Assembly (NCBI GenBank): GCA_963662865.1
Contig: OY759969.1
Location: 1,707,638-1,771,637 of the forward strand
Origin: Gammaproteobacteria bacterium
GTDB lineage: Bacteria > Pseudomonadota > Gammaproteobacteria > JAJDYQ01
Direction of reading: 5' to 3'
Length of the DNA: 64,000 nt
The translations under genes and the position numbers were made by a program. A model generated the notes under the pieces. It did no database searches, was not told where the DNA came from, and saw nothing but the letters and a program-made list of their open reading frames with translations. This document shows, one piece after another, positions 8,221 to 51,710 of the stretch. The number at the start of each line of letters is the position of its first letter. Positions within the stretch are counted from its first letter, which is position 1.

Positions 8221-8354
8221 AAAATACTCCAAATAAATAAAGTTCAGGCTACCCGCGCCTGCACGAAGCAGGTTCAGCATAGGGCATGACTTGTTAATTT
8301 ATCATAAATGGAGATTTGTACTAAACGGTTTGTCCAGGTCCAGTACCTGTGAGA

Positions 8355-8381
8355 CAACATCAAGCCACCTGCTTGATGTTG
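8355..8381 (-). other. conserved 11-bp-stem hairpin in the 3' flank of autotransporter paralog 1
   Basis: The stem is CAACATCAAGC / GCTTGATGTTG with a 5-nt loop, about 80 nt downstream of the stop. The same stem occurs at 40525-40551 downstream of paralog 2. There is no clear U-tract. Confidence 0.4.
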
Positions 8382-8462
8382 CAGGGTGTTAGCCGGAAAC
8401 ACCTTCAGCCGACCTCTCGGATAGAAACACAAGGGTGGCTGGTATTGCGGCCATGCCGAGCG

Positions 8463-11400
8463 CTACCAGCGCAGCTTCCACTGTGCGCCGATGCCGTGGT
8501 TGGTTTTGCCTTCGTCGTCCCGGCGGCGCAGTGCCTTGATGTCCAGCTCCGTGTCCGGGCCGCCCGGTGCCGACAGCAGGCGCCAGCCCAGGGTCAGGTC
8601 GTGCCCGGCATCGGACGACGACAGGCCCGCATACGGGATGCCGGTGGCGCCGTCATCCAGGGCCAGGCCCCACTCGCCCTGCAGGCTCCAGCGACCGGAG
8701 GCCGGGCCGGGCTGCGATGAATCTTCCTCCAACGCGTCCGACAACAGCCGCTCCAGGCCACCCGAGGCCGGGGCGGTGCCGTATTCCTGACGTAGACTCA
8801 GCGATGGGCCATGGGCGGAACCCGGTCGCAGGTCGTAGCGCAGCGAACCGGACACGCCCCACTCACGCCGCTTGGCGGCCTCATGATCCAGCAGACGCCG
8901 GCCACGCAGGTCAATCGTTAATCCTTTGGAAGGCAACTGCCAACTGATACCGCCGCCCAGTTCCACGCCCAGGCCGTCGCTGGTATCGCCGCCGTCATAG
9001 CGCATCCCCAACTCCAGTTCCGGAATCAACCGGCCACCGTCCGCCTGCGGCAACTGCCAGGACCACTCCAGACCCATTCGGAAACGCTCCGTGTCCGCCG
9101 ACATACCCGATACACCGTCGGCATCGTCCGACTCAATACGCGCCAATGCCGCATCCGAGATCAGCGTCAGCGTCAGGCCGCCCTCTTCTAGCGGGCGCTC
9201 CAGCAGCGTGCCGCGTACACCGACCGAGGCCGAGGTCTGCTCGATGTCATGCTTCGTACTCATCGTGGCCGAAGTCTGCTCCAGGGTCTGCTCCAGTTCG
9301 CCACGGCCATAACTCGCCGCTGCCCATAACTGCAATCTCTCGGTGACGTTATGCCGGATATACGGCAGCAGCGAGGTCAGTCGGCTCGACAACTCGCCCT
9401 GTTCCGCAGCACCGCTCCAGTCGCCATCGCCGTCGCTGTACGACAGCGCCAGTCCGAGCAGCGTGCGGCCATTGTCGCGATCCACGCCCAGCATGCCGGT
9501 GGTCACATCGCCATCCACCGCGATGCCGTCCTGGCCATCCTCGTAGCGCGAGTACGACGCCTGACCCCACACCGAAACACCGTTCTCCCCGCCGCGGTGC
9601 ACAAAGCGGCTGCCGCGCAGCATATCGCGCAGCGACAGCGAACGTGACAGATTCAACATGCGGTCAATCGAACCGGCGCCCAGGTCATCACCGCCGCCAC
9701 CCTGAACGAAGCCGTCCGTTCCCAAATCCGTGCCGGTTTCATGCCGTGCACGACCAAGGGACAGGCCGCTCACATTGCCCGATAGCCCCGCTTGATCGGC
9801 CACCGAAAAGCGGTAATCCAGGCCGTCCAGCAGATGTTCTACCGCCGTCAGGCCGAAGTGCGGCAGCCAGGCCTCCTGCGCCGCCTGCATCTCCTGCATC
9901 GCCTCCGTACCGACCGGTGCCGCGTCGTCGTCGGTCACCGTGACCGTGACCGCCGCCGGGCTCAGGCCGCCTACCGGATAGTCGCCGCTGTCGCCGTTGC
10001 TGATGCGATGGCTGAGCGTCGCTGTGCGTCCACCGCCGGGGTTGTCTACGTTGTCGTCAATGCCGGTGACCGTCACCGTCTGTGCCGTGCCCCAGTTGGC
10101 TGTCGTGAACGTCAGGGTGGTCGGGCTTGCCGTGGCCGCAGCGGGCAGATCGGAGGTCACCATCAGCTCGACATCGCCGCCCGGTTGTGCGTTCAGCACC
10201 ATCGTGTAGGTGTCCATGCCTCTGGCCTCGGCGACCGTGATCCGGGTCTCGCTCAGGGTCACGCCTGCCGTCATGACGGGGGTATCGTCGTCGGTCACCG
10301 TGACCGTGACAGCCGCCGGGCTCAGGCCGCCTACCGGATAGTCGCCGCTGTCGCCGTTGCTGATGCGATGGCTGAGCATCGCTGTGCGTCCACCGCTGGA
10401 ATTGACAACGTTGTCGTTGACGCCGGTCACCGTCACCATCTGCGCCGTATTCCAGTTGACCGTCGTGAACGTCAGAGTCATCGGGGTCACGGTGGCGGCA
10501 CTTGTCGTATCGGAGGTCACCATGATCTCGACGTTGTCGGACGGTTGGGTGGCCAGCACCACCGTGTAGGTGTCCGTGCCGTTAGCCTCGGCGACCGTGA
10601 TTCGAGGCTCGCTGATGGGGATGCCCGCCATATCGTTGTCGGTGACGGTCACCGTCACAGCGCCTGTTATCGAACCATCATACTCTGTTGTGCCTGAGGC
10701 TGTATGTGTCAGGCTCACGGTGTCGTCCGTCGCATCGGCGTCGGCGTCCGCCGTCACCGTGAAGGTCTGTATCATATTCCAGTTGGTCGCCGTGAACTCC
10801 AGGCTGTCCGGATTCAGCGTCAGGTCGGTGCCGGAGTGACCGGTGACCGCCACGGTGACATTGCCCGTCGGGGTGGTGGCCAGGGACACCGGGTAGCCGA
10901 CACTGGCGCCTTCGGTGACCGCCAGGGTCGGTGGCAGTACGATGGCCGGTTGTTCCATGATCGTGAAGGCCAGGCTGCCCGTGCTACGGGTGCCGCCGTC
11001 CAGGCCGGTAGCGACCAGGGTGCCCAGGCCGATGGTGATGGTCTCGCCGGAGTCGGCGGTGTTGTCGGTCTGTACGGCCAGGGTCAGGGTGGCGGTGGCC
11101 GGGGCCGGGCCGGTAAATGTCACCGTGCCGGCGGTGCCGCTGTCCGGGATGGTGTAGGCGATGCCGTCCGCCGGGGTGCCGGTCACGGTGTAGTCCGTGC
11201 CTCGCGTTGCGGTGCCGCCCAGGGTCAGTGGCACGGCCAGGCTTTCGCCGGCGACCAGCGGGCGGTTCAGGGTGACGGTGAGGTTGCGGGTGGTGGCTTC
11301 GCTGAGATTGCCCATCGTGCCCGCCAGGGTCACTGTGGTGGCGTCGTCGTCGCTGACCTGCACCATGGCTGAGGACGGTATCCCGACGGTGTAACCGGTG

Positions 11401-12866
11401 CCGTCCGCTATGGTCACTGTGAGGGTGCCGTTAGGTTCGTCGGTGTTGTCGGCCTGTGTGTCGATGTCAACGGTGGTCGTGGTGGTGCCGCCGGTCAGGG
11501 TGGCCATGCGTGTGCCTTCGTTGCCGGCGGTCAGATAATCACTGGGGGCGGCGGCGTCCGTGACGGTCAGCCTGATCGGCAGGTTGGCCGCCGGGGCGCG
11601 GTTGGTGGTCACGGTGAAGGTCGCGGCGCTGCCTTCGGTGGTTGTGGGGCCGCTGGTGATGCGGATGGTCAGTGGGTCTTCGATGTTGAAGTTCGCCAGT
11701 GAGTCGGTACCCGTGGCACCGCCGCCCAGGCCGGTGCCGGAGTTGCTGTCCAGGGTGCCCAGGCCGATGATGACGGTCTCGCCGGCGGTCTCGTCGTTGT
11801 TGTCGGTGGTCGCGCTCAGGGTCAGGGTGGCACTGGCGGCCGATGGGCCGGTGAAGGTCACGGTGCCTGTGGCGCTGTTCAGGCCGGTGTAGGTGACGCC
11901 GTTTGCCGCGGCGCCGGTGACGGTGTAGTCCGTGCCCGGTAGCGCTGCGCCCATGAAGGTCAGTGGCACCGGCAGCGCCTCGCCTGCGGCCAGGGTGCGG
12001 CCCAGGGTGACGGTGATGGCTTTGGTGGTGCCTTCTATGATGTTGCCCGTGGCGCCCGCCAGGGTCACTGTGGTGGCGTCGTCGTCGATCACGGTCGCGG
12101 TGATGGGGTCCAGGGTGAGGTTGTAGTTGGCGTCCGTGGAGGTGGCGGCGTGGGTAATGGTGACTTCCTGGTTGGCGTCGTCGTCGTCGTTATCTTCCCC
12201 GGTGACGGTGAAGGTCTGGGCCATGTCCCAGTTGGCGCTGGTGAATACCAGGTTGTTGGGGTTGACCGTGGCGGTGGTTGGTGTGCTTGAGGTGGGTGTG
12301 ATGGTCACGTTTGCGGTGGGTTGTGTGTCCAGCACCATGCCGTATTCGTCTGTGCCGCCTTCGGTGGGTGTGGTGGCGTCCGCCGTTTCGGTGAAAGTCA
12401 CGCCTGCGGGGGCGTCGTCGTTGGTAATGGTGAAGGTGACGCTGCCGGCGGTTGTGGAGATGACGACGTCGTTGGGGGTAGGTACACCAACGATAATACG
12501 CATCGGGGTCACGGTCACTGTTTCGTCGGGTTCAATCGCCGTGTCGCCGTTTATCCTAATCTTGTACTGAACGCTGGCGAGATTGGAGGGTACACTAAGG
12601 GTAGAGATATTCGCTCTTAAATTAGAAGGCACAGCATTGTTGGTGAAGGTGTACTGGTAGTCGTTGCTGTCACCACGGGTGGCGGTGCCACCCAAGTGTA
12701 AATCAATCCCAAAAGCCTGCGCACGAGGTGGATCGATGGTCACTGTTACGGTCGCGCCGTCGATAATGCCGGAATCGCCCTCGGCGGCCATGGTGCGGTC
12801 CAGGCTGATTGATACGGTGTGGGTGTTCTGGGCGAAGGCCGGTGCCGCAAGGCCGACGAGCAGCAC
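8463..12866 (-). CDS. autotransporter-type giant surface protein, paralog 1 (Calx-beta/cadherin-like modules plus C-terminal autotransporter beta-domain); body ORF
   Basis: 1467-aa ORF. The passenger is built from beta-sandwich modules with Calx-beta-like signatures (IRINGDTAIEPDETVTV, TITNDDA) and cadherin-like ones (LTFTTxNWxTAQTVTVTG.DD). About 470 C-terminal residues (roughly 8463-9880) look like an autotransporter beta-domain: alternating amphipathic strands, VSVWGQASYSRYE, and a terminal ...QWKLRW. The N-terminus of the ORF is only the h/c part of a signal peptide (LLVGLAAPAFA|Q). The true start seems to lie upstream of the poly-C tract in another frame (see 12932-13069). Confidence 0.75.
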   Translation of the reverse strand: MLLVGLAAPAFAQNTHTVSISLDRTMAAEGDSGIIDGATVTVTIDPPRAQAFGIDLHLGGTATRGDSNDYQYTFTNNAVPSNLRANISTLSVPSNLASVQYKIRINGDTAIEPDETVTVTPMRIIVGVPTPNDVVISTTAGSVTFTITNDDAPAGVTFTETADATTPTEGGTDEYGMVLDTQPTANVTITPTSSTPTTATVNPNNLVFTSANWDMAQTFTVTGEDNDDDDANQEVTITHAATSTDANYNLTLDPITATVIDDDATTVTLAGATGNIIEGTTKAITVTLGRTLAAGEALPVPLTFMGAALPGTDYTVTGAAANGVTYTGLNSATGTVTFTGPSAASATLTLSATTDNNDETAGETVIIGLGTLDSNSGTGLGGGATGTDSLANFNIEDPLTIRITSGPTTTEGSAATFTVTTNRAPAANLPIRLTVTDAAAPSDYLTAGNEGTRMATLTGGTTTTTVDIDTQADNTDEPNGTLTVTIADGTGYTVGIPSSAMVQVSDDDATTVTLAGTMGNLSEATTRNLTVTLNRPLVAGESLAVPLTLGGTATRGTDYTVTGTPADGIAYTIPDSGTAGTVTFTGPAPATATLTLAVQTDNTADSGETITIGLGTLVATGLDGGTRSTGSLAFTIMEQPAIVLPPTLAVTEGASVGYPVSLATTPTGNVTVAVTGHSGTDLTLNPDSLEFTATNWNMIQTFTVTADADADATDDTVSLTHTASGTTEYDGSITGAVTVTVTDNDMAGIPISEPRITVAEANGTDTYTVVLATQPSDNVEIMVTSDTTSAATVTPMTLTFTTVNWNTAQMVTVTGVNDNVVNSSGGRTAMLSHRISNGDSGDYPVGGLSPAAVTVTVTDDDTPVMTAGVTLSETRITVAEARGMDTYTMVLNAQPGGDVELMVTSDLPAAATASPTTLTFTTANWGTAQTVTVTGIDDNVDNPGGGRTATLSHRISNGDSGDYPVGGLSPAAVTVTVTDDDAAPVGTEAMQEMQAAQEAWLPHFGLTAVEHLLDGLDYRFSVADQAGLSGNVSGLSLGRARHETGTDLGTDGFVQGGGGDDLGAGSIDRMLNLSRSLSLRDMLRGSRFVHRGGENGVSVWGQASYSRYEDGQDGIAVDGDVTTGMLGVDRDNGRTLLGLALSYSDGDGDWSGAAEQGELSSRLTSLLPYIRHNVTERLQLWAAASYGRGELEQTLEQTSATMSTKHDIEQTSASVGVRGTLLERPLEEGGLTLTLISDAALARIESDDADGVSGMSADTERFRMGLEWSWQLPQADGGRLIPELELGMRYDGGDTSDGLGVELGGGISWQLPSKGLTIDLRGRRLLDHEAAKRREWGVSGSLRYDLRPGSAHGPSLSLRQEYGTAPASGGLERLLSDALEEDSSQPGPASGRWSLQGEWGLALDDGATGIPYAGLSSSDAGHDLTLGWRLLSAPGGPDTELDIKALRRRDDEGKTNHGIGAQWKLRW

Positions 12867-12931
12867 GGCGGCAAGGCCGCGGCGCAGACAGAGGAGGGTA
12901 GAGGCGAACCGGCGGAATGCCGGGTGCTGCG

Positions 12932-13069
<138 letters not shown>

Positions 13070-13226
13070 GATTGTTGCTCCTGCTTTTACGGTATGTAAC
13101 TGGCTTTGCGGGCCGGGTAAATTTCTGTTCATTGTTTCGTGTCCTCTATCCGGGGTTCTCTGTTCAGGCCCGGCCTTTGGGCCGGTTCCGGGCCCATGCG
13201 CCGGATTCATGTCTGCAATTTAAGCT

Positions 13227-13255
13227 ACTTTAGTCCAATTCGGGAGACATTGCAA
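13227..13255 (-). promoter_or_regulatory. putative sigma70-type promoter of autotransporter paralog 1
   Basis: On the minus strand, TTGCAA (13255-13250), a 17-nt spacer, then TAAAGT (13232-13227). Identical hexamers and spacing recur upstream of paralog 2 (51710-51682). Confidence 0.45.
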
Positions 13256-13375
13256 GCCCTTGTCCTGATTTCAGTTCCTATGAGACAAAATAGCGGCTTG
13301 CATGGGGTTTGCTGATCGTCATGCACGGGTGCCTCCAAGCCGGTTATGGAACCGATACGCCCTATCGTGCTGCTG

Positions 13376-13927
13376 TCAAACGAGCTCGTCTGATTCGATG
13401 CGCGACCAGTCAAAAACCGGCCCGGGGTCGGTTTTCCGTCCCGACGCTATATCGCTGTGACCGATCACGTCTTCCGCATGAATATCGGTGTATGTTTCCC
13501 GCAACAGGCGAAGACTCTTCGTTAATACTTTATATTGCTGCTCTGCATAAGGAATGTCGTCGGCTCCTTCCAGTTCAATGCCGATGGAGAAGTCATTGCA
13601 GCGTTTTCGCCCTTTGTATGCTGATACGCCGGCGTGCCAGGCCCGCTTGTGGAAAGGTACGTATTGAATCATCCTGCCGTCTCGACGAATCAGTAGATGC
13701 GATGACACCCGTAATTCGCAGAGCTCGCGATAACCGGGATATTCCTGCGGGTCGAGCGTGTTGGTAAAGAGCTGTGTAATGCCTTCTCCACCGAACTCGT
13801 TCGGCGGCAGGCTGATGTTGTGAATCACGATCAGCGAGATGTCACCGACATCCGGCCGGTCGTCGCAGTTGGGTGATTCAATGTATTCGGCAATGTCGAG
13901 CAAGCCGCTGCCGGCATCAATTTTCAT
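13376..13927 (-). CDS. ampD: 1,6-anhydro-N-acetylmuramyl-L-alanine amidase
   Basis: Amidase_2 blocks (IVIHNISLPP, SSHLLIRRDG, AWHAGVS, NDFSIGIELEG, HSDIA..RKTDPG). Start set to ATG 13927 (MKIDAG...), giving about 183 aa, which is typical for AmpD. Confidence 0.85.
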   Translation of the reverse strand: MKIDAGSGLLDIAEYIESPNCDDRPDVGDISLIVIHNISLPPNEFGGEGITQLFTNTLDPQEYPGYRELCELRVSSHLLIRRDGRMIQYVPFHKRAWHAGVSAYKGRKRCNDFSIGIELEGADDIPYAEQQYKVLTKSLRLLRETYTDIHAEDVIGHSDIASGRKTDPGPVFDWSRIESDELV

Positions 13928-14387
13928 CTTGCGGCTATGTGTCGAAGGGCACGGTGCGCCCTGCATAGGATTCATTCTTGCGCAGCTCATCATCGGTATG
14001 CCCAAGAGCAGCCATACGATCTATACGCGGCTTTTCTCCATCGGGTGTGTATATCATGATGGCATTGTGGTGCGTCGCCGTGTAAGTCTCGCTATCCAAC
14101 GCCGGCAGCGGCGCTCAACAGCAGTAAATCCCGACGGTTTCCTGCAAGGGTATCGTGATGACAGGGGTATGCCGGCTTTTGTCTGTTTTCCATCCTACAC
14201 TCCTTATGCTGTCTGCTGTATTACGCTGTAGAGTTTGCTGCCTCTGGCAGCATGACTTGTATTTTGTTCGCTGTCCGGCCAAGGAGTATGCCCTGGTTGA
14301 GCAATTTTAGCACGGGCTACAGGCCGGCAACTTCTGTTGCAGGCCATATCAGTCCAACCTGAGCAGTCGAGGACTCAGCCGCGAATT

Positions 14388-15584
14388 TTACAGACGATAG
14401 CGTATGTCCTGTGTAAAACCCGGGCCCGGTTCGCTGTTTTTCGTCAGGGAAATAACCTTTACGGTTTCTCCCATTTCTCCCGGCTCAAGCAGCCGTTTAA
14501 CGGCTTCCGCCGATGACAGGTGGCCAGGATTGACCTGCCTGTCATCACCGTTAATACCTGACTGCATCAGATTCAACAGGCCGTTCTCAAGCAGAAAATT
14601 TGCCTGGGTGGCATAACCTGATACCAGTAATCCAGCTGCAAGCGCTGATTCGGCTACGGCTGTGAAATCTACCCACGCGGTCAAGTCCGCTAAACCCGGA
14701 TACAGTAACACGTCATCCACATCATAGTGCCGGTAATAGGCTCTCAAGCTGCCATGTAATCGGTCGGGGCGATAGTACATTGCACGCTCGTAACCATAAT
14801 CAAGCAGCAACACTCCTCCTGTTCTCAAGCCGGAGGACAGGGCTTTTATCCAGCCAGGCAGCAGCAGATTAATTTCAGACCGGTATCCATCCGGATAGTC
14901 TGTAACCGCCAATGGCAGGCAGGCTTCAATCTGTGTCGCCAGTTTCGCAGGGGCGGTACGGGATTTCCAGCATGGCCGCGATGCTTCCATGCCAATACCC
15001 AACTGGTGAATTTCGCCTTCCTGAAGTGCGAAATGTTCCACGGGGATCGCATCCATGACTTCATTGGCGATCATTATCCCGGTAAAGCTGTCTTTGTCCG
15101 GAAGGCTATCCAGCCAGTCAATTCTGTCGAAGGTGCTGGTCAGACGTTGTTCAAGATATTGCCTTTGACGGGCCTGCAAGTCGGCCGATGGTTCAAGGAT
15201 CAAATAGGATTCAGGTAGTGCCTGATGTTTTTCGAGATGTAACAGGATATCCGCCGCCATTGTTCCCGAACCCGCGCCCAGTTCCAGAATGGCTCCCTTG
15301 TCCGGTAACACGGAAAGGAGGTGCTGGCCCAGCGTCTGGCTGAACAGCGGGCTAATCATCGGCGCCGTAATAAAGTCACCGGCTGAACCCAGTTTTTCCC
15401 TGCCGGCGCTGTAATAGCCCAGCCCCGGCGCATGTAAAACATGCTGCATATACTCGGAAAAGCTGATGAAGCCGCCGGCACTGTCGATCTTTTGCCGAAG
15501 CGAAGTCAGTACCCGGTCACCATGCCGTCTGGCTTCGGCATCCGGTTCGGGAAGTTCATTTAAATAAGTGCTGAAAAAAGCCAT
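14388..15584 (-). CDS. class I SAM-dependent methyltransferase, DUF185 / NDUFAF7(MidA)-like
   Basis: 398-aa ORF with the family layout: FISFSEYMQHVLHAPGLGYY, DFITAP, and the SAM-binding ILELGAGSGTMA. Confidence 0.7.
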   Translation of the reverse strand: MAFFSTYLNELPEPDAEARRHGDRVLTSLRQKIDSAGGFISFSEYMQHVLHAPGLGYYSAGREKLGSAGDFITAPMISPLFSQTLGQHLLSVLPDKGAILELGAGSGTMAADILLHLEKHQALPESYLILEPSADLQARQRQYLEQRLTSTFDRIDWLDSLPDKDSFTGIMIANEVMDAIPVEHFALQEGEIHQLGIGMEASRPCWKSRTAPAKLATQIEACLPLAVTDYPDGYRSEINLLLPGWIKALSSGLRTGGVLLLDYGYERAMYYRPDRLHGSLRAYYRHYDVDDVLLYPGLADLTAWVDFTAVAESALAAGLLVSGYATQANFLLENGLLNLMQSGINGDDRQVNPGHLSSAEAVKRLLEPGEMGETVKVISLTKNSEPGPGFTQDIRYRL

Positions 15585-15628
15585 GAAATATCAGTATAGT
15601 TCCACTTTCGCCCGGCCATTTTACGCAG

Positions 15629-16375
15629 ATGGATTTAACCCAGCAGGACATAGAAGGCAAAGTCGCTCTCGTCACAGGCGCCTCAAGGCGAATCGGTGCC
15701 GAGATTGTGCGCACCCTTCACCGGGCCGGCATGAGGCTCTGTCTGCATTACCGTTCTTCCAGGGAGGATGCGGAATTTCTTGCCGATGAGCTCAACGCCG
15801 CCCGGGCAAATTCGGCAAAACTCATACGGGCCGATCTGTCCGAAACCAGTGCACTTGTCGGTCTGGTCGGCACATGTGTCGAACACTTCGGGCGACTGGA
15901 TTTGCTGGTCAATAATGCATCTACATTTTACCCGACACCCATTGGCAGTATAACGGAAAAAGACTGGGATATTTTGCTGGCCAGTAACTTGAAGGCGCCT
16001 TTGTTCCTATCTCAGGCAGCGGCAGAACCACTGGCCGTTAATCAGGGCAGTATCATCAACATTGTCGATATCCATGCTGAGCGACCAATGAAAAATCACA
16101 CCGTTTACAGTATCGCCAAATCCGGTTTGCTGGCTTTAACCAAAAGTCTGGCTCGTGAGCTTGGTCCTGATATCAGGGTCAACGGAGTTGCTCCCGGCGC
16201 AATACTCTGGCCGGAAAACGGGGAAGCCCGGGCCGATATACTGAACCGAATCCCGCTGAAACGGTCCGGGAAACCGGAAGATATTGCCGCTGCCGTACTG
16301 TTTCTGTTTCGTGACGCCACCTATGTCAGCGGACATATGCTGCCGGTTGATGGTGGACGATTACTGAATATATGA
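15629..16375 (+). CDS. short-chain dehydrogenase, pteridine/dihydromonapterin reductase (FolM-like)
   Basis: SDR motifs TGASRRIG, NNAS and YSIAK, and a C-terminal VDGGRLL. Close overall resemblance to FolM/PTR1-type reductases, and it sits in a folB-folK neighbourhood. Confidence 0.7.
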   Translation: MDLTQQDIEGKVALVTGASRRIGAEIVRTLHRAGMRLCLHYRSSREDAEFLADELNAARANSAKLIRADLSETSALVGLVGTCVEHFGRLDLLVNNASTFYPTPIGSITEKDWDILLASNLKAPLFLSQAAAEPLAVNQGSIINIVDIHAERPMKNHTVYSIAKSGLLALTKSLARELGPDIRVNGVAPGAILWPENGEARADILNRIPLKRSGKPEDIAAAVLFLFRDATYVSGHMLPVDGGRLLNI

Positions 16376-16430
16376 GGCGAACCCGGACGGAATGGCGGCG
16401 ATGACGCCGCTTTCCCGCCCACATCCGGCC

Positions 16431-17756
16431 TTACCAGCGCCAGCCCGTTTGTGACTGCCTTTGGCGTCGTTGTGACGCGGGAGGTGGCGGCTGAAAGCCC
16501 GACCGCGGCGGCTGATACGCTGGCCGGTATGATTGCCACCGGTTGTATGCCGGTGCCTGCGGGGACCACACCGAAGGAGGGTATTGTCTCGCCGCTCCAG
16601 GTGGGGGCGGGGCAGTTGCCGCGCCTGAGGGGGATGGTGGTGGTGGGAATGGGATAGGCAGATCCGACACATTCGGCGTGGCGGCCTGTGTTGATTCGAT
16701 TGCTATTGCGGTGGCCTCTGGTTCGGCAGATACCGACTGCTGGCCGGAAATGTCTGCGACATTGGCGGAATCTGTTGAGTCCGTCGCCTGCCTGCTCCCG
16801 GAGTCCGTCGTTTCTTCGCTCTCCCGTGTTGCGGAAAGGTCTTCTGTCGGCGTGGCCATACCGACAACAGGCGAATGCCCTTCAGTGGAAGGCGATTGCT
16901 CCGAGGCAGGTGCCTCAATCATGAACCTGCCTTCAAGCGCCGCGCCCTTGAACGGATATTCAACGGGCCCGAGCGACTGCTCCGAAGCAGCCTTTTCTTC
17001 TGCCTCCGGCGGTGGGGTAATCTGTGGTAATGACGAACCGGAAACTCCGTCGCCTGCCTGCCCACCGCTATCGGTGGCTTTTGTCAAATCGGCTGTGGCG
17101 GCATCATCCAGCGGCTGACGCACGTCATCGCGGCTAAAAAACGCCAGAAATATCACCAAAAACATGACGGCCAGAGCGACAAAAATAAACTCGACCCTCA
17201 TGTTGAGCAGGCTTTTCTTTGGTGGAGTAGCAGGTGCAGGGGCGTCGGTATCCGGCATAACTCCCATGTTTTGCGGTCTTTCGGATATTTTTTCCCGTTT
17301 ATCCGCTTTCTTTGCGCCGGTGGCTGACGCTGTGGCCGTAACGGCAGCAGCGTCCTGTCCCTTTGTTACGGCGGATGAGCCGCCTGGGAGCACACTGTCA
17401 GCCTTGCTTTTACGGGCCTGGCGAAGATTGGTCACACCAGAGATGAGCTCGTCAAGTTTCGCCAGAGAGTAGGCTGCATCTTTCAGGGTAACTTCATTGC
17501 TGTTTTTCGTGAAGTTCTTCTTAATCTCGTCACGAGCCTTATCGATATCGCCTGCAGAAAAAGTAGCATTTTCAGTAATATACTTGAAGTTTTTGTTCCG
17601 CCTGATATCACGGATCTTACCGGAAGTGGTGAAGTACCTCTTTGCGATCTCAGAATCCGAACCTTCTTCACGAAAACGAATATACCAAACCAGAGGATGC
17701 GGCATTTGGCCGCGGGAAATACCACCAGAGATACGAGTTGTTTTTTTCTCAGCCAT
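16431..17756 (-). CDS. hypothetical bitopic membrane protein (basic N-terminal domain, one TM helix, acidic S/T-rich then Pro-rich C-terminal tail)
   Basis: 441-aa ORF. The N-terminal roughly 110 aa are conserved-looking and globular (PLVWYIRFREEGSDSEIAKRYFTTSGKIRDIRRNKNF). TM helix FIFVALAVMFLVIFLAFF. Low-complexity tail ending PPPPASQRRQRQSQTGWRW. I recognise no family. Confidence 0.5.
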   Translation of the reverse strand: MAEKKTTRISGGISRGQMPHPLVWYIRFREEGSDSEIAKRYFTTSGKIRDIRRNKNFKYITENATFSAGDIDKARDEIKKNFTKNSNEVTLKDAAYSLAKLDELISGVTNLRQARKSKADSVLPGGSSAVTKGQDAAAVTATASATGAKKADKREKISERPQNMGVMPDTDAPAPATPPKKSLLNMRVEFIFVALAVMFLVIFLAFFSRDDVRQPLDDAATADLTKATDSGGQAGDGVSGSSLPQITPPPEAEEKAASEQSLGPVEYPFKGAALEGRFMIEAPASEQSPSTEGHSPVVGMATPTEDLSATRESEETTDSGSRQATDSTDSANVADISGQQSVSAEPEATAIAIESTQAATPNVSDLPIPFPPPPSPSGAATAPPPPGAARQYPPSVWSPQAPAYNRWQSYRPAYQPPRSGFQPPPPASQRRQRQSQTGWRW

Positions 17757-17936
17757 TTGTCAATCACCTCTGTGCCAATGAATCAAGACCCGCTCTGCAT
17801 CTTTGTGACGCCAGGGCCTTGTCGTTACCGTTGATCAGGCCCGGGATTAAATCGGGCGAAAAACGAAATCTATTTCGACTCTTCTCCATAAGCCTCAAGT
17901 TTACAACAATTTTGGTAAATACCAAATGATATTGAA

Positions 17937-18434
17937 CTAATCCAGATCAGGCAAAATCAAGTTTACAGGGCGCAATTCATGGTTCCCCTGATATTCCCGC
18001 CACATTTGTTGGTAGCTCCGCTGCTCGGAGGGATGCAATAATCCCGGAGCTATTTCGGCTAGGGGCCGTAATACGAATGCATATTCGAGGATATCCGCAT
18101 GAGGCAGTTTCAACGGCCCTGTGTCAGTCACCAGATCTCCATAAAGAATCAAATCGATATCCAGAGTTCTGGAATGAAACTTTTTCTTTTGCCGTTTTCG
18201 GCCATGATCGGCTTCGATCTGACGAAAAATTTCCTGCACTTTCAGTGGGCCGATTTCAGTTTGAAAGGACAGCACCATATTCAGAAAATCATTGCTTTCA
18301 AGTCCGACCGCCTTGTTCTGATATACCGTTGAGCAGGTCAACGAGCCAAAACGGCGGCCAATCGCAGTGACTGCGGAAACGATGTTGCGCTCCCGGTCCC
18401 GGTTGCTTCCCAGGCTGGCAAAAACCTCAGGCAT
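17937..18434 (-). CDS. folK: 2-amino-4-hydroxy-6-hydroxymethyldihydropteridine diphosphokinase
   Basis: HPPK blocks (FASLGSN, RTLDIDLILYGD, LPHADILEYAFVLRPL). Start set to ATG 18434 (MPEVFASLGSN), overlapping the folB stop by 8 nt. The ORF track extends to 18464. Confidence 0.85.
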   Translation of the reverse strand: MPEVFASLGSNRDRERNIVSAVTAIGRRFGSLTCSTVYQNKAVGLESNDFLNMVLSFQTEIGPLKVQEIFRQIEADHGRKRQKKKFHSRTLDIDLILYGDLVTDTGPLKLPHADILEYAFVLRPLAEIAPGLLHPSEQRSYQQMWREYQGNHELRPVNLILPDLD

Positions 18435-18780
18435 GACCCCGCTCAATAATAATGCCGACATCATGCGCCCCGCGAAGGGCGCCGGTTTTATTGAGCCTGA
18501 TACGTACCCAGGGCACGGAGAACTCTTCCATAATCAGTCCGGCGCATTCTTCAAGCAAGGTTTCAACGAGCTGATATTCGCTCGCCCGCACAAACTCCAC
18601 CAGGCGTTTACAGACTGCCTTGTAATTCAGTGTATCTTTAATATTGTCACTGGCGGCTGCCTTACGAATATCGGTACCCATTTCAACATCCAGAATTATG
18701 GTCTGGCGGATACGGCGTTCCCAGTCATAAACTCCAATCAGGGTATCAATTCTCAGATCGTTAATAAAAATCCTGTCCAT
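18427..18780 (-). CDS. folB: dihydroneopterin aldolase
   Basis: MDRIFINDLRIDTLIGVYDWER... is a typical FolB N-terminus. About 117 aa from the ATG at 18780, with folK immediately downstream. Confidence 0.85.
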   Translation of the reverse strand: MDRIFINDLRIDTLIGVYDWERRIRQTIILDVEMGTDIRKAAASDNIKDTLNYKAVCKRLVEFVRASEYQLVETLLEECAGLIMEEFSVPWVRIRLNKTGALRGAHDVGIIIERGHA

Positions 18781-18878
18781 AATTTCCCGCTCCAGTCGCG
18801 TATCGCCATAATCTTCGGTTGACGTGTGCATTGTAATGTACAATTCCGCAACCGGAAATCTCCTGTTCATTAACGCCA

Positions 18879-24492: not shown

Positions 24493-26385
24493 TTACACTA
24501 ACAGAGCCAACTGCAAAAAATTATCGTCACTTCTCATAATCTCTTCATGATTTTCATGCAGGTAACTAACTGATTTAAGGAAATTACGTGGCTCTCCTTT
24601 GAACAGTATCTCATCCGGGTCCTGCTTCTTCAGTTGTTCGCTGAGTTGAACCCTCAATCCGTGATCTTCCACGAGCCTCACGCTTGCCTCAATATACTCC
24701 TCTACCGTGTGTGTCACCAGCCAGTCAGGCAGACCCAGGCGCATAAACAACCCTTCGTCAATGTGTGACAACACTTCGGCACCGCTTAAGCAGATACCAG
24801 GCAATGCTTGACGCACGGTATCGACCAATCCATTTGTATTTCCAAATGGAAACGGGTTAATAAACATGTCGCACCGGTTCATGTTTTGCAGATAAACATC
24901 TCGGTTACTGTGCGGGTAAATGTATTGTCCCGGTAATATACCATTCACAAAATTTTCAATATAGACTTTACCCAAACCAATCGCATGCCCGGTCAGGAAA
25001 TGAAATTCTACCGGTTGTTTACTGCTTTCCTTTATGGCACGACAGGTTTTCAGAAAATCAGGATTCAGCTTCATCGCGGTAGCGGCAACGGCTATTTTTA
25101 TAACATCCGGCTTGCTGCGAATCTCCGGTTCAATTTTTGTAAAGTCATCATGTGGTGGCACATATGGCAAGCTATCTTTGGGCAGAGCCGCGACTTTCTC
25201 ACTAAAACATTTCGGGTCTCCGACATAATCCTCTTCCACAAGAATATAGTCGATAAATTCCGAATGTGTCGTTGCCGGGTGTCCTAATGCCGCCATCTGA
25301 ATGGGCGCCAGTCTGAAGTTAATCAGCACAACCGTCTGCAGAAACATCCCCACGCTCGGATAATAAATAATTTCCGGATTAAATCGAGCCACAAGTTCCA
25401 TAACCCGCTGCACATTTTTATACAGTCCCTGTTCATGCGGTATATCGTAAACTTCATCAAATACTTTTTTAGAGTTTTCATCCGACATTCCACTTAAAGA
25501 AACACCAATCAGATGGTATTTTTCCCGCAAGGCCCTGGCAGCGGTTGAGTGAGTCCGGTAAATGGAGTGTCCCGAGAGAAACCACTCCAGTATCACCATA
25601 ACAACCGGCTTCCCTTTAATCATATTTTTTTCTGTTCCGAATTCCCTGTCGGTCATTCCTTTGTTCATCATTTCCCTGCGAATCAGGCGATTGATACTTC
25701 GCTTGATGTCATGTTTGTTGGCAAGCATGGCGTAACTACAGTGCATCCAGACGTCATGAATATACCCCAAAGGAATATCAGACAGATCATCCAGTTCTCC
25801 CAGGCATTCAGGCAGCCAGTTCAGCAGCACTTCCTTTTTCTTGTGTGCCGCCTCGCTAATGACCGTGCGGGACGATAACAGACCAAGAAATAATGCTGCC
25901 GCAAGCTTTTTGTTAGCGTTCCATAGCATATCCGCCTGCATTGATATAAATGAATCACCGGAATACAGCATGGTGAATTTCAGCAGGTTCTTCTGGCTTA
26001 TCTCGAAATTACCCGGCTGATCAAAGCCATTTAAGTTTAATAGATGCAGAATATGGTCGGCATTAGTAAACGAACTTGCTCCGAACAGCATCGCTATCCA
26101 GCGATGCAGCAGTATGAACTGATGAAATCCGGGCACACTGACGTGAAAATCAGGATCAGAAAACAGCGCGGACATTGCAGAGGTCAATCGCGTAATGATA
26201 TGGCTATCTCGCTGCTCCTCCTGCCAGGAAGTACCTGATCGGCTGGTTCCAACCAGACCAAGCTGGCCGTAGCTTTTGTCGAGAATTCTCAGTAGTTTTA
26301 TCAGCTCTCGCGCTGCTTCTTCATGCTGGCGCTGATAACAAAGCTGCTCGAAGCGTTCCAGTGCAAATTGTTGTTCTTCCGCCAC
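24493..26385 (-). CDS. HMW1C-like cytoplasmic N-glycosyltransferase (NGT, GT41 family)
   Basis: About 630 aa with no TPRs. From my memory of Actinobacillus pleuropneumoniae NGT and Haemophilus HMW1C, long colinear blocks match: FTNADHIL, HDVWMHCSY..NKHDIKR, KPVVMVILEWF..HSIYRTHS, RLAPIQMAALGHPATTHSEFIDYILVEEDYVG, LPKDSLPYVPP, MKLNPDFL, NPFPFGNTNGLVD, HIDEGLFMRLGLPDWLV. The likely start is GTG 26385 (GGTGGA-N6). The ORF track start TTG 26421 would overlap the leuS stop. GC is visibly lower than in neighbouring genes. Confidence 0.8.
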   Translation of the reverse strand: MAEEQQFALERFEQLCYQRQHEEAARELIKLLRILDKSYGQLGLVGTSRSGTSWQEEQRDSHIITRLTSAMSALFSDPDFHVSVPGFHQFILLHRWIAMLFGASSFTNADHILHLLNLNGFDQPGNFEISQKNLLKFTMLYSGDSFISMQADMLWNANKKLAAALFLGLLSSRTVISEAAHKKKEVLLNWLPECLGELDDLSDIPLGYIHDVWMHCSYAMLANKHDIKRSINRLIRREMMNKGMTDREFGTEKNMIKGKPVVMVILEWFLSGHSIYRTHSTAARALREKYHLIGVSLSGMSDENSKKVFDEVYDIPHEQGLYKNVQRVMELVARFNPEIIYYPSVGMFLQTVVLINFRLAPIQMAALGHPATTHSEFIDYILVEEDYVGDPKCFSEKVAALPKDSLPYVPPHDDFTKIEPEIRSKPDVIKIAVAATAMKLNPDFLKTCRAIKESSKQPVEFHFLTGHAIGLGKVYIENFVNGILPGQYIYPHSNRDVYLQNMNRCDMFINPFPFGNTNGLVDTVRQALPGICLSGAEVLSHIDEGLFMRLGLPDWLVTHTVEEYIEASVRLVEDHGLRVQLSEQLKKQDPDEILFKGEPRNFLKSVSYLHENHEEIMRSDDNFLQLALLV

Positions 26386-26410: not shown

Positions 26411-29065
26411 TTAAACCACAACGTTAACCAGCTTACCGGGCACCACTATTATTTTTCGTATCTCTACATCGTCAATAAATCGCTGTACATTTTTATTGGC
26501 CAGTGTGGCCGCCTCGATAGCTGCATTATCCGCATCGACGGCTACCGTTATCCTACCGCGAACCCGGCCCCCGACCTGCACTACCATTTCAATCGAATCT
26601 CTCACCAGCGCCGATTCATCAACTTCAGGCCATGGCGCATTCAAAATATCATCACCATAGTCCAGCTCGCGCCATAAGGTATGGGTGATGTGCGGCGCAA
26701 TCGGTCCTAATAATCTGAGAACAATACCCAGGCCCTCAGCCAGCAGCCGTTTTCCATCATCAGAACCACCGAACCGGTATAATACGTTCACGATTGACAT
26801 GCAGGCGGAGACAACCGTGTTGAACTGCTGACGTTCATAATCGAACAAAGCCTTCTTCAGATGCTCATGCACTTCCCTTCTGGCATTTTTTTGATTGTCC
26901 ACTATCCCGTTACTCACGACCAATCCTCCGATTCCAGGGTGAGCACTGGCCAGATTCCACAGGCGCTTCATAAAACGCGAAGCACCTTCCACTCCCTCAT
27001 CCGACCATTCCAGTAATTGCTCCGGTGGCGAGGTAAACATGATATAAAGGCGCACGGTATCAGCGCCATAACGATCTATCAACGTTTGAGGATTGACCCC
27101 GTTGTTCTTCGATTTGGACATTTTCTCAATGCCACCGGGGAAAACCGGCCGCCCATCAGACTTCAGCCTTGCGCTGATAACCTTTCCTTTGTTATCTCTC
27201 TCGGTTTCAATGTCAGCCGGATTAAACCACTCTTTGGAGCCATCTTCGTTTTGCCGATACCAGGTCTCGGCGACCACCATGCCCTGGGTGAGCAACCGCG
27301 TAAACGGTTCATCATTATCCACCAAACCCTCGTCTCGCATAAGCCTGTTAAAGAAGCGCGCATATAGCAGATGCAAAATGGCGTGTTCGATACCGCCTAC
27401 GTACTGGTCAACCGGCAACCAGTATTTGGCACGCTCGTCCAGCATTGACTGGTCGGCATCCGGACAGCAATAACGTGCGTAATACCAACTGGACTCAAAA
27501 AAGGTGTCAAACGTATCGGTCTCACGTTCGCGGCCATCACCAAGATCATAAAACTCTGGCATACGTTTTAATGGTGAACCGGTTCCATCGACAATAATAT
27601 CCTGCGGCAGCTTTACCGGGAGCCCGGTTGCAGGCTCAATACCTTCCGGGGTTTTAACTATCGGGATCGGACAGCCCCAGTAACGCTGACGGGAAACGCT
27701 CCAGTCGCGCAGGCGGAAGTTAATCTGCCTGCCGCCTTTGCCTCCGGCATTCAAGTGTTCGGCTACGGCGTCAAAGGCTTGGTCCGAAGTCAGCCCGCTA
27801 AACCGGGCAGATCGTCTCAAAATACCTTTTTCACTGAATCTCGTATCCCATTCGTCCCATATTAACGGGAGATCATCTTTAATTGATAATGCAGGAACCC
27901 GGCGATCTTCACTCAATTCTGCCTCTCCCGCCGCTGAGTTTATTTCTGATTCACTAATGTCTTTGCCTTCCCAGTGTGAGGGGACTATCACCGGTTTAAT
28001 AGAGAGGTTGTATTTTCTTGCAAAGTAAAAATCCCTTTCATCGTGCGCGGGAACGGCCATCACCGCACCGGTACCATAGCCCATCAGGACAAAGTTGGCG
28101 GCATAAATCGGTACAATGCCGCCCGTAATCGGATGCACGGCGTTAATATCCAGGGCGATACCCGCCTTCTCCACGGTTTCAATCTCGGCTTCCGAAACAC
28201 CGCCCTGCCGGCACCTCTCAATAAAGGCGGCAATATCCGCATTGCCTTCACCCGCCCGCAGCGCCAGAGGGTGCTCTGCGGCGACGGCCATGTAGGTCAC
28301 ACCCATCAGAGTGTCCGGACGTGTGGTAAAAACGGTAAGCTTTTCGTCAGTCTCTTCGATATTGAAATCAACCGTTACGCCTTCCGAGCGACCGATCCAG
28401 TTGCGTTGCATGGCAACAACCTGCTCCGGCCAGCCCGGTAATTTATCCAGACCATCCAGCAGCTCCTGTGCGTAATCCGTGATCTTCAAAAACCATTGCT
28501 CAATTTCACGTTTCTCAACTACCGCACCGGAACGCCAGCCACGACCGTCAATCACTTGCTCGTTCGCCAGCACCGTCCGGTCAACCGGGTCCCAGTTCAC
28601 CGCCGCCTTCTTGCGATAGGCCAGATCTTTTTTCACCAGATGGGTAAACAACCACTGCTCCCAGCGATAATAATCGGCATCACAGGTCGCCAGCTCCCTA
28701 TCCCAATCATAACTAAATCCCAGCAATTTGAGTTGGCCTTTCATGTATTCGATATTGGCGTAAGTCCACTCGGCAGGTGGTCTGGCATTTTTAAGAGCGG
28801 CATTTTCAGCCGGCAGACCAAAGGCATCCCAGCCCATGGGCTGCAGGACGTTTTTCCCCAGCATCCGCTGGTAACGGGAGATTACATCGCCGATCGTGTA
28901 GTTACGCACGTGTCCCATGTGTAACTCACCGCTGGGGTAGGGGAACATGGACAGGCAATAAAATTTTTCCTTATCCGGTTCTTCAATGACCTTGAATGAC
29001 CGATTTTTCTCCCAGTACTGCCGGGCTGCCGCCTCCAATTGCTGTGGATTGTATTTTTCTTCCAT
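26411..29065 (-). CDS. leuS: leucine--tRNA ligase
   Basis: Class I HIGH ([11 protein letters not shown]) and KMSKS motifs, about 884 aa. Start set to the ATG at 29065 ([11 protein letters not shown]). Confidence 0.95.
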
Positions 29066-29647
29066 GAAAGGGTTTGATCTGATCAAATAAGCCGCAAGAA
29101 TACAGCAGTCAGACGATTATTCGTAGCGCCGCCAGAATAAAATGCAGCCTGCATGCAGAGAATATTCAGATGTCTGTGTCAGGCAGATTTACAAAGCAAT
29201 GTAATCATCCGGGCGCCTCTCAAAGTAAATGGCTAATTGGGATAGCGTGAGATTACCTTTATATCAGGTGCAGCCAGTGCACAGATACCTTGGTTATGCC
29301 GATATAGAACAACCTGAGCAAGGCTGTCTCCATCAATCGAACCCGCTTTTGATCCTGGCCAACTTGCAGAATCAATTGCATTATTATTCAAAATAAGCTT
29401 ATGGAAATTCTGATTAAATCAGAGTTTCCTGCGCCACAAACGATGTATCGCCAAAATCAATCACGATCAGTTATTGATTTTGAAAGGAAAGCAAAAATCA
29501 CATTCTTGTTTGTCGCGCTCTGACAAGTTCAGGATAGAATTGTTCAGAGCTTCTGTATAATTGTTGTTTAGATTGATAGCTCGAAAAAGTTATATATTAT
29601 AATTATGGTAAAGATTAATTATTATCTGCAATCAAAAGGAGAGTAAG

Positions 29648-36906: not shown

Positions 36907-37072
36907 CACCTGCAGGATTTATTGATCTGGATTAAGTCACTTGAAAATCAGCCTCATGCCACGTGGAAAACCGCTTTGCTTGTTGTATGATGAAGATCGC
37001 AGGAAGGCACAGGCTTCAAGATCAATGCTTCCTGTCCCCTGTAATAACACAATGCATTTTCGGAGAATTAAA

Positions 37073-37678
37073 ATGACTTTGAAGAAAACTTTGGCCCTGT
37101 TGGCTGTCACGGGTGCGACTGTAATGATGGGATCATCTATTCAGGCCCAGCCCTGGAGCGGTTCTGGCTATGGTGGTGATAATTTTGGTACTTCCGGTTG
37201 GGGCGATGGGCGCAGTTCCGGCCGTGGTAACGCTTCCGGTGAAGGAGATTTCAATATGAATTTCTCTGGTCGTGGTCAGGGTAATATGGACGGCGACAGT
37301 AACTGGCAGGGTTCCGGTTATGGTTCCGGCAACAACCAGGGCGGCTACTATGGTGGTGGCCCATACGGTTATGGCCCCCGTGGTTACGGTACGCCCCCCG
37401 GTTACGGTACGCCCCCCGGTTACGGTGCGCCCCCCGGTTACGGTACGCCTCCCGGTTACGGTACGCCTCCCGGTTACGGTGCGCCCCCCGGTTACGGTAC
37501 GCCTCCCGGTTACGGTGCGCCCCCCGGTTACGGTACACCCCCCGGCTATGGTGCGCCTTACGGTGGTTACGGTGCCCCCTATGGTTACGGTGCTCCAGGG
37601 ATGATGCCGCAGATGCCTATGCCGCCGCGTCCCGCGCCTCTGGCACCACAACAACAGGTTCCGGCACAGAATAATTAG
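37073..37678 (+). CDS. secreted Gly/Tyr/Pro-rich tandem-repeat protein (sulfur-globule-protein-like composition)
   Basis: GGAG-N7-ATG at 37073 and a Sec signal peptide ([25 protein letters not shown]|QP). The mature part is G/Y/S/N/W-rich, with about 10 PPGYG(T/A) hexapeptides followed by a [12 protein letters not shown] and Pro/Gln tail. Confidence 0.7.
37382..37561. repeat. 18-bp tandem repeat (about 10 copies), in-frame coding for GYG(T/A)PP
   Basis: GGTTACGGT(A/G)CGCC(C/T)CCC is repeated head to tail, with only the A/G and C/T positions varying. Confidence 0.9.
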
Positions 37679-40428: not shown

Positions 40429-40524
40429 GTCGGCGCTGGTAAATATCGGATATATGTATGGTGCCTACATTGCGCGACTCATAGGCAGAAAGCAAGCACT
40501 TGTCCGGGTTCAGTACCTGTGAAA

Positions 40525-40551
40525 CAACATCAAGCTAGCCGCTTGATGTTG
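40525..40551 (-). other. conserved 11-bp-stem hairpin in the 3' flank of autotransporter paralog 2
   Basis: Same stem, CAACATCAAGC / GCTTGATGTTG, as at 8355-8381. The surrounding roughly 100 nt are also homologous between the two loci. Confidence 0.4.
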
Positions 40552-40649
40552 CAGGGCGTTAGCCTGAAACATCTTTAACCGGCCCGACCCTCGAATAGAA
40601 ATCCGGATAAAAACCCCGCTGAAAACACAACAGAGCAACTGGTATCACC

Positions 40650-40683
40650 GCAAATAGCCGCCGGGGGATCTGCCCCCGGCGGC
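40650..40683 (-). terminator. probable intrinsic terminator of autotransporter paralog 2
   Basis: Perfect 11-bp GC stem GCCGCCGGGGG / CCCCCGGCGGC (40657-40667 and 40673-40683) starting 11 nt after the stop, followed on the transcript by UAUUUG. This element is absent from paralog 1. Confidence 0.55.
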
Positions 40684-40694
40684 CATGCCAATCG

Positions 40695-51488
<10,794 letters not shown>

Positions 51489-51681
51489 TCCTCTGTTACG
51501 ACAATGTGTAAGCGGCCTTGCGGGCCGCTTTGTTTTCCGTTGACTGCTGTCTATTTTCTGGCCTGGGCGCGGTTTTTCTGTGCGGACCGGGCCGGGGGCC
51601 TGATTCAGGCCCGGCTGCCGAGTCGGTTTTGAACATCGGTGCCGGGCCTGTGTGCCTCGGAATCCAGCTGCAATCCGGTTT

Positions 51682-51710
51682 ACTTTAGTCTATCCGGGAC
51701 GGGATTGCAA
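51682..51710 (-). promoter_or_regulatory. putative sigma70-type promoter of autotransporter paralog 2
   Basis: On the minus strand, TTGCAA (51710-51705), a 17-nt spacer, then TAAAGT (51687-51682). Identical to the element at 13227-13255. It would give a 5' UTR of roughly 190 nt. Confidence 0.45.

Follow-up and report, generated by a model that had tools for sequence, protein, structure and literature searches.

Two paralogous type V adhesins of Haemophilus influenzae, HMW1A and HMW2A, have their expression set by a 5' simple-sequence repeat (PMC12721329; bioRxiv 10.1101/744037). In the 5' untranslated region (UTR) of hmw1A the repeat pairs with a G-rich arm, and a longer repeat leads to lower expression (PMC12721329). 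Together with HMW1C/HMW2C, these proteins are the closest described analogue of an arrangement that an earlier note had proposed for the DNA considered here, a window of 64,000 nt (the whole stretch that was analysed; contig OY759969.1, positions 1,707,638 to 1,771,637) from an uncultured gammaproteobacterium. The note had read two giant phase-variable autotransporter genes, here P1 and P2, and a gene for an HMW1C-like cytoplasmic N-glycosyltransferase (NGT) as one three-part system of surface variation. The likeness to the H. influenzae system lies in the paralogous giant type V proteins, each with its own 5' repeat, in the cytoplasmic enzyme of the HMW1C family, and in a G-rich segment past the repeat. 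In H. influenzae, however, the adhesins are secreted by the two-partner route (type Vb), the repeat is a 7-bp unit in the 5' UTR, and the enzyme is encoded in the cluster of its substrate, whereas here the proteins are of type Va, the repeat is a homopolymer of C14-C50, there are dozens of paralogs, the enzyme is unlinked, and the passengers are poor in the N-X-S/T sequon. More notable than the proposed three-part unit is the large gene family to which P1 and P2 belong, whose members would be governed by long poly-C tracts.

Orphan NGTs that modify distant autotransporters have been described in Kingella kingae (HMW1C and Knh), Aggregatibacter aphrophilus (HMW1C and EmaA) and Actinobacillus pleuropneumoniae (rimO-ngt-agt and AtaC) (PMC4550697; PMC5303269). 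As in those systems, the present enzyme is not encoded beside a substrate and sits behind a translation-related housekeeping gene, rimO there and leuS here. The substrates of the orphan enzymes are trimeric or dense in sequons (72 in AtaC), whereas the proteins in this window have monomeric-type barrels, immunoglobulin (Ig)-like passengers and few sequons, and the enzyme is without an agt-like partner gene. As for the tracts, the chlamydial Pmp family is an expanded set of autotransporter paralogs in a small genome, some of them with poly-G tract variation. Pmp passengers are beta-helical, and the tracts are short and confined to a few members, whereas in a relative of the organism studied here a tract is found at 17 of the 19 visible 5' ends, and lengths, with the tracts of the window included, run from 14 to 50 nt. 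A slipped-strand G or C run also sets surface-protein expression in Bordetella fim (poly-C), Neisseria opc and porA, and Treponema pallidum tpr (poly-G). Those tracts are ~8-17 nt long and lie in promoters, whereas the present ones reach 50 nt and abut or lie inside the start of the open reading frame (ORF).

The two giant ORFs and their parts are, in window positions:

8463 to 12866, minus strand: P1 (paralog 1), 1467 codons open from a GTG, with a truncated signal peptide, Ig-like/Calx-beta-like passenger modules and a beta-domain.
8466 to 9923, minus strand: C-terminal translocator of P1, modelled as a long alpha-helix followed by a beta-barrel, last residue W (AlphaFold 2 model, mean confidence pLDDT 74).
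9924 to 10631, minus strand: two tandem modules of P1, ~118 aa each (TYTVVL...NW..Q.VTVTG...DDD), predicted Ig-like beta-sandwich fold.
40695 to 51488, minus strand: P2 (paralog 2), an ORF of 3597 aa with the frame open from upstream ATGs across the tract.
40698 to 42164, minus strand: beta-domain of P2, 90% identical to that of P1.
45309 to 48752, minus strand: P2 passenger region of four tandem super-repeats, ~287 aa each, 86-90% identical at the nucleotide level, with Calx-beta-like domains.

On the predicted structures, P1 and P2 are classical type Va autotransporters with passengers built as beads on a string rather than as a beta-helix. The AlphaFold model of the beta-domain shows a helix at residues 2-32 and then a barrel, for which the top Foldseek matches in the PDB were BrkA, NalP, Hbp, EspP, EstA and AIDA-I, with TM-scores of up to 0.74 on the target. 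Precomputed matches to the Pfam Autotransporter family PF03797 exist in many homologues at 30-65% identity, and none was found in the window proteins themselves, even at E<=5. Sequence comparison of the beta-domain and of the ~115-aa passenger module with Pfam and the PDB gave no classification, and structure prediction was needed. The model of the module is an Ig-like sandwich that matched PapD, MSP and Calx-beta folds, with weak Pfam matches to Calx-beta in the passenger sequences; it is not the beta-helix that is typical, if not obligatory, for type Va passengers. Both proteins end in LRW and so have the C-terminal aromatic residue, and the predicted signal peptides, as read from the sequence, are RRGLAAVLLVGLAAPAFA and RRGLIAVLLGLPLLAGLATEAAA, each followed by Q. 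The N-terminal head domain of P2 (residues ~90-300) had no Pfam match.

The relatedness of the two proteins, as the earlier note had described it, is borne out: the genes are paralogous giant autotransporters that share a leader (upstream regions alignable at 75% identity) and a beta-domain (90% identity over the C-terminal 480 aa), and both have a repeat architecture, with four super-repeats in P2 and a tandem module pair with a 360-nt unit in P1. P1 is the counterpart of the last ~1680 residues of P2 (1922-3597); within this part, P1 residues 16-985 align with P2 residues 1922-2876, in the passenger, at 64% identity. With P1 compared to P2, the passenger has a ratio of nonsynonymous to synonymous divergence (dN/dS) of 0.59, and the beta-domain one of 0.27. 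We also observed that dS is lower in the beta-domain (0.22; 8466-9923) than in the passenger (0.40; 9924-12866), which hints at gene conversion at the 3' end among paralogs.

Only two homopolymers of at least 10 nt occur in the 64 kb; on the plus strand they are G50 (12969-13018) and G38 (51391-51428). On the coding strand both are poly-C, with one tract at the start of each giant ORF. The 5' features are:

12969 to 13018, minus strand: poly-C tract of P1, 50 nt; frame lost relative to the upstream ATG, the only one present, which 48 or 51 nt would restore.
12867 to 13069, minus strand: 5' leader of P1, with its ATG at 13069-13067 and AGGAG at 13082-13078 ahead of the ATG (8-nt gap).
51391 to 51428, minus strand: poly-C tract of P2, 38 nt, followed by AAATGGGG-TATTT-ATG.
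13227 to 13255, minus strand: promoter-like block TTGCAA-17 nt-TAAAGT, P1 copy, conserved in both paralogs.
51682 to 51710, minus strand: the same promoter-like block, P2 copy, conserved in both paralogs.

Both upstream regions carry GGGCTTGCAAT-N13-GACTAAAGTA, which corresponds to the TTGCAA-17 nt-TAAAGT block. The idea of a shared promoter can be kept to the extent that the motif is conserved upstream of both genes, but in a sigma-70 scan the block reached 8/12, under the threshold of the scanner, and it stays a conserved motif. A leader of 51-54 nt, ending in TACACAATTTAAT directly before the tract, is found in both paralogs. The leader of P1 encodes MVTMPVKRATSAIHNLI, then the tract and, in the +1 frame, NRDIRPEP...RRGLAAVLLVGLAAPAFA; with 50 C residues the leader ORF meets a stop 36 nt past the tract. 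No main-frame ATG, GTG or TTG is present between the P1 tract and position 12866, and P1 has lost the downstream Shine-Dalgarno sequence and the downstream ATG. In P2, a Shine-Dalgarno sequence (GAGGA-6 nt-ATG) precedes the upstream start, and at C38 the frame is open from this ATG via a run of 14 prolines into the signal peptide. The ATG at 51377-51375, downstream of the P2 tract, is in the main frame and offers an alternative start. Upstream of these elements, a GC-rich stem-loop (AAGCGGCCCGCAAGGCCGCTT) can be seen at 51510-51530 in P2 and, less perfect, at 13095-13115 in P1 (both minus strand), in each case ~25 nt upstream of the Shine-Dalgarno sequence of the leader. An Rfam scan of the whole window returned zero matches.

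P1 and P2 belong to a family of giant autotransporters that is large, dispersed and quick to diverge, and nearly every member has its own long poly-C tract right at the 5' end. On the 2.57-Mb contig that includes the window there are at least three further gene calls of the family (P0001/P0166, P0012, P0013), these other paralogs of the window genome being visible as protein sequences only. A scan of species-representative genomes found 28 copies of the beta-domain in OZ243932.1, a gammaproteobacterial metagenome-assembled genome (MAG) of 2.51 Mb, and further copies in two other MAGs. One of these other MAGs, JAJDYQ01, is the namesake of an order-level clade in GTDB (PMC11427306). Twenty of the 28 copies in OZ243932.1 are intact ORFs of 2400 to >3800 aa, and eight are broken. 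Eighteen tracts of C14-C35 were present in the DNA fetched from this relative; every one lies on the coding strand, and 17 sit directly before a giant ORF. Two of the 19 visible 5' ends had no tract. Beta-domains are 61-66% identical between genomes. The positional orthologue of P1 in OZ243932.1 is a 3089-aa copy with C14, the flanking genes of which are 72-91% identical to those in the window.

That each paralog has a homopolymer of its own, as the earlier note had it, is clear from the C50 of P1 and the C38 of P2, and the hypermutability of such tracts is supported by length differences in the relative. Four copies there with ~95-100% identical flanks have tracts of 18, 21, 25 and 29 nt, and a second strain from the same sample (on a low-coverage contig) has C26 where the main strain has C21; this polymorphism is a property of the loci of the relative and not a comparison of the window's own loci. 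In the window genome, the third paralog P0166 reads MVTMPVKHATSAIHNLI-PPPPPP-NRDIRPEP...AFAQ, a leader of the P1 type that is in frame with a tract of ~18. A metagenome scan with the leader pattern of the window gave no match. A looser one (C12 + AAATGGKR) picked up 120 loci, not one of which encoded a relative, the pattern being too unspecific. Nothing scored in a protein search for other in-frame copies with the 75-aa leader and signal peptide of P0166, a result probably due to cluster representatives being C-terminal fragments.

Several further observations come from the relative. Synteny between window positions 36941-61820 and loci L034/L036 breaks and inverts exactly at family members, and the blocks 51826-56989 and 56916-61820, which are neighbours in the window, each adjoin a degenerate paralog in OZ243932.1, ~130 kb apart; the breaks and inversions at family members suggest that the paralogs mediate rearrangements. 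In the 75 nt upstream of the tracts at loci L008-L035, at least five unrelated upstream types are combined with two downstream types, the junction being at the poly-C, a pattern that points to recombination at the tract or through it. A 13-nt unit (GATGCCGGCCGTC-like) was seen in one or two copies just past the downstream ATG, ~20-45 nt after the tract, when L014, L033, L008, L017 and L025 were compared with L007, L011 and L012. A single copy puts the downstream ATG and the long ORF in different frames, and the unit may be a second length polymorphism that shifts the frame.

In the account that we consider likely as a whole, slipped-strand events would alter tract lengths and so set each copy's expression separately, and a population could thereby display shifting combinations of surface proteins. 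For the window genome we favour a coding-frame switch, at close to even confidence, over a tract that acts as an untranslated rheostat. Translation would then start at the ATG upstream of the tract that is preceded by a Shine-Dalgarno sequence, the tract would be translated as poly-proline, and its length modulo 3 would decide whether the ribosome reaches the signal peptide. Read in this way, P2 (C38) would be ON, P1 (C50) OFF, and the third copy outside the window (~C18) ON. What speaks for such a switch is that P1 and P2 have both kept the upstream Shine-Dalgarno sequence and ATG, that a P1-type 5' end offers no start codon besides this ATG and the 4.4-kb ORF of P1 is nevertheless intact, and that P0166 has a P1-type leader in frame.

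A number of points weigh against the frame switch. Of 17 copies in the relative, 14 offer an ATG in frame 4-23 nt past the tract, seven of these 14 with a GGAGG-type Shine-Dalgarno sequence, and several unrelated sequence types lie upstream of the tracts; P2 itself retains the downstream ATG. The leaders of P1 and P2 differ in ten places, with no preference for any codon position. If the leader were translated, 60-90 residues would separate the signal peptide from the N-terminus, ribosomes should stall on 14-17 prolines in a row, and slippage of RNA polymerase on such long runs could blur the frame. A reservation of another kind is that the exact tract lengths come from long-read consensus and may be off by one or two bases.

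These observations leave room for a different role of the tract, which we regard as a serious possibility, if one well short of even: it could lie untranslated in the 5' leader, directly ahead of a G-rich ribosome-binding site, and tune expression in a graded, length-dependent way. This could occur through sequestration of the ribosome-binding site, RNase processing, or use of the C-rich run as a Rho loading site. P2 and 14 of the 17 copies of the relative share the conserved arrangement (C)n-AAATGG(G/T)(A/G)GGG-8/9 nt-ATG, the C run is paired in predicted hairpins with the G run of the G-rich ribosome-binding site, and in several 5' types an inverted repeat surrounds the tract, the Shine-Dalgarno sequence and the ATG (z = -3.4 at L014). 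Tract lengths modulo 3 are spread across all three classes, and the hmw1A repeat hairpin with its G-rich arm provides a precedent (PMC12721329). However, the P1-type 5' end, as in P1 and P0166, has neither the G run nor the downstream ATG, and the ORF is still intact; the upstream ATG of P0166 is in frame with its ORF; P1 and P2 have each retained a Shine-Dalgarno sequence and ATG upstream of the tract; and the P2 tract has no strong predicted structure (z = +0.6). Hairpins in which upstream sequence pairs with the Shine-Dalgarno/ATG region and the poly-C lies in the loop were predicted for three loci of the relative, with none comparable at P2:

L014, 2660-2780: hairpin, z = -3.4.
L017, 2590-2710: hairpin, z = -1.2.
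L013, 2400-2520: hairpin, z = -2.0.

Another potential explanation is that the apparent switch states reflect artefact or decay, the tract lengths being consensus errors and P1 a truncated dead copy. Long homopolymers are error-prone in sequencing, P1 is short of ~1900 aa relative to its positional orthologue and has lost the downstream Shine-Dalgarno sequence and ATG, and eight of the 28 copies in the relative are broken. We nevertheless consider this explanation very unlikely. Two independent assemblies and the contig of the second strain all have tracts at the same position, and the near-identical 5' end of P0166 is in frame. The P1 ORF is open over 4.4 kb (1467 codons) and the dN/dS of its beta-domain is 0.27, and therefore P1 is not long dead. 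The coding-frame switch remains our preferred account for this genome.

The remaining part of the proposed unit is the enzyme, which is encoded as follows:

24493 to 26385, minus strand: NGT, HMW1C-like cytoplasmic N-glycosyltransferase, 630 aa from a GTG at 26385, with HMW1C_N, HMW1_D2 and GT41 domains.
26411 to 29086, minus strand: leuS, directly upstream of NGT on the same strand.

By its sequence, the enzyme is a genuine HMW1C-like NGT and is predicted to transfer hexose from UDP-hexose to Asn of acceptor proteins. The Pfam domains HMW1C_N, HMW1_D2 and the C-terminal GT-B/GT41 domain were matched at E-values of 5e-24, 2e-22 and 3e-06, all above the gathering score, and over residues 21-616 the enzyme matched the solved NGT structures 8p0o, 3q3e and 8j30 at E=1e-152. 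MKLNP and FPFGNTNG, which we take to be the motifs that bind uridine diphosphate, are retained when the enzyme is aligned with a solved structure. The score against the NCBIfam model NGTferase (NF049992) was 639 bits and did not reach the equivalog cut-off of 1000, which indicates a divergent orthologue whose exact activity is not guaranteed. The NGT gene starts 25 nt past the leuS stop, and the order leuS-NGT is also found on a related metagenome contig; the two genes are probably co-transcribed. NGT identity between genomes is 86-87%, within the range of the flanking housekeeping genes (72-92%).

The enzyme does lie between the paralogs, as had been stated. Of the reported separation of 12-14 kb, what holds is that the genes are unlinked and not in an operon; NGT is in fact 11.4 kb away from the start of P1 and 14.3 kb away from the stop of P2, and the intervening DNA carries housekeeping genes on either strand. 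No family member was found within 10 kb of NGT in eight related loci, and no linked cluster of the HMW1ABC type, with NGT and substrate together, is present. The neighbours of NGT also vary: glnD-map-rpsB in OZ243932.1 and another MAG, an IS605-type gene in JAJDYQ01, and, for more distant NGTs, an adjoining GT2 gene or a nearby ShlB-type transporter. In OZ243932.1, duplicated fragments of DotD/TraI-like type IV secretion genes lie ahead of NGT (L038:4748-8469). An absence of NGT from this genome, considered when none appeared in the top 120 NGT matches, was ruled out, its NGT (P0180) being hidden in a 90% cluster and the gene being confirmed at L038. We think it probable that NGT is a separate, constitutively placed orphan enzyme and that its position between P1 and P2 is incidental.

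Whether the passengers look like substrates can be judged from the number of sequons, with the expectation taken from shuffled sequences:

P1 passenger: 9 observed, 13.6 expected, z = -1.5.
P2 passenger: 21 observed, 30.8 expected, z = -2.1.
21 paralogs from relatives: 313 observed, 525 expected, ratio 0.60.
19 other window proteins (control): 28 observed, 31.3 expected, ratio 0.90.

The earlier hand count of nine sequons in the P1 passenger is exact, but the statement that this is about what composition predicts is not, since the shuffles place nine below expectation. All 21 paralogs from relatives have negative z scores, and the passengers carry 0.7-0.9 sequons per 100 aa, with 7-29 per protein. 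Across 23 paralogs (those of the window and L004-L033), Ser or Thr at +2 follows 14% of Asn residues compared with 21-25% of D, G, Q, E, A and P. The mirror motif S/T-X-N occurs 655 times and the forward motif 343 times. In an alignment of 11 paralogs, sequon columns are shared by 2.29 sequences on average, compared with 2.48-3.15 for control motifs (the mirror and D/Q), and 33 of the 59 sequon columns are singletons. Of five motifs listed as recurring in both P1 and P2, TANVTIT, RNLTVTL and GN[LI]SE do so, whereas GNVTV and ANGTD are found in P1 only; five sequons are at aligned positions in the two proteins. Given the depletion and the low conservation, the supposedly conserved sequons carry no signal, and the motif is if anything avoided.

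On this evidence we doubt that NGT and two phase-variable autotransporters form a functional system in which the enzyme hexosylates N-X-S/T sites of both passengers in the cytoplasm and their surface function needs, or is diversified by, this modification. The idea has real precedents: known substrates of HMW1C-type NGTs are, as the earlier note held, all type V adhesins, some of them encoded far away (PMC4550697; PMC5303269), and the simple-sequence-repeat-controlled paralogous adhesins of H. influenzae and their NGTs form such a system (bioRxiv 10.1101/744037). The enzyme also looks intact, with both of the motifs named above kept, and the five aligned sequons would fit. NGT and the family co-occur in all three checkable genomes (the window genome, OZ243932.1 and the MAG JAJDYQ01); however, these are close relatives from one clade, and the co-occurrence is therefore not independent evidence. 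Against the idea stand the lack of any paralog within 10 kb of NGT in the eight related loci and the differing neighbours, the sequon level of 0.6 of expectation beside 0.9 in controls, the weaker conservation of sequon columns than of mirror or D/Q columns, and a density of 0.7-0.9 per 100 aa where the proven substrate AtaC has 72 sequons (PMC5303269). By analogy with the orphan NGTs that modify type V adhesins encoded elsewhere, NGT may glycosylate P1 and P2, with the sequence evidence arguing for nothing of the kind. The earlier note had identified the parts correctly. As a unit, the three-part system is not supported: the family is dispersed, NGT is unlinked and coupled to leuS, and sequons are depleted.

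The same counts raise the opposite idea, which we put forward tentatively and think rather unlikely, that NGT acts mainly on other proteins and that the passengers have been selected to avoid the sequon. The shortage of Ser and Thr at +2 of Asn, the excess of the mirror motif, the negative z in 21 of 21 paralogs and the many singleton columns all speak for it. Set against this, the repeats are related and the counts are not independent, Ser and Thr are also low at +1 and -1 of Asn so that loop context explains part of the effect, no other NGT substrate was identified, and each protein still keeps 7-29 sequons.

Other genes in the window concern the organism and its surroundings. A sulfur-globule-protein-like gene (Pfam SGP) at 36941-37678 has 9.8 tandem units of 18 nt, encoding GYG(T/A)PP, at 37382-37557, and marks the organism as a sulfur-storing thiotroph. 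At 62096-63997 on the minus strand, a 633-aa ORF runs to the window end with ankyrin and TPR repeats, a eukaryote-like type frequent in host-associated bacteria. Two genes of the MlaC family, both on the minus strand, lie immediately downstream of P1 (7606-8280) and a few genes downstream of P2 (37761-38408).

Most known cases of repeat-driven adhesin switching come from a small number of human pathogens, where the tracts are short and few genes are involved. What differs here is the setting in an uncultured sulfur-oxidising gammaproteobacterium, with tracts as long as 50 nt, a family of ~28 copies in the relative, and non-helical Ig-like passengers on a type Va barrel. In the most far-reaching picture, about a tenth of a 2.5-Mb genome, in an uncultured sulfur-oxidising and possibly host-associated lineage, would consist of dozens of giant Ig-repeat autotransporters, each governed by a poly-C tract of up to 50 nt that acts as a length-graded throttle beyond a three-phase switch (through poly-proline stalling, a hairpin with the G-rich ribosome-binding site, or Rho loading), and a clade-conserved NGT would select against the sequon. 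We regard this picture as unlikely in its entirety; if true, it would be a combinatorial system of surface variation without precedent in its scale and type of tract. The depletion of sequons beside a conserved cytoplasmic NGT raises the question of whether such enzymes impose selection on their motif at the level of the proteome. If the tracts control expression, the family would be among the largest known sets of individually switchable surface proteins, and would offer a useful natural test of the tolerance and reading of very long homopolymers.

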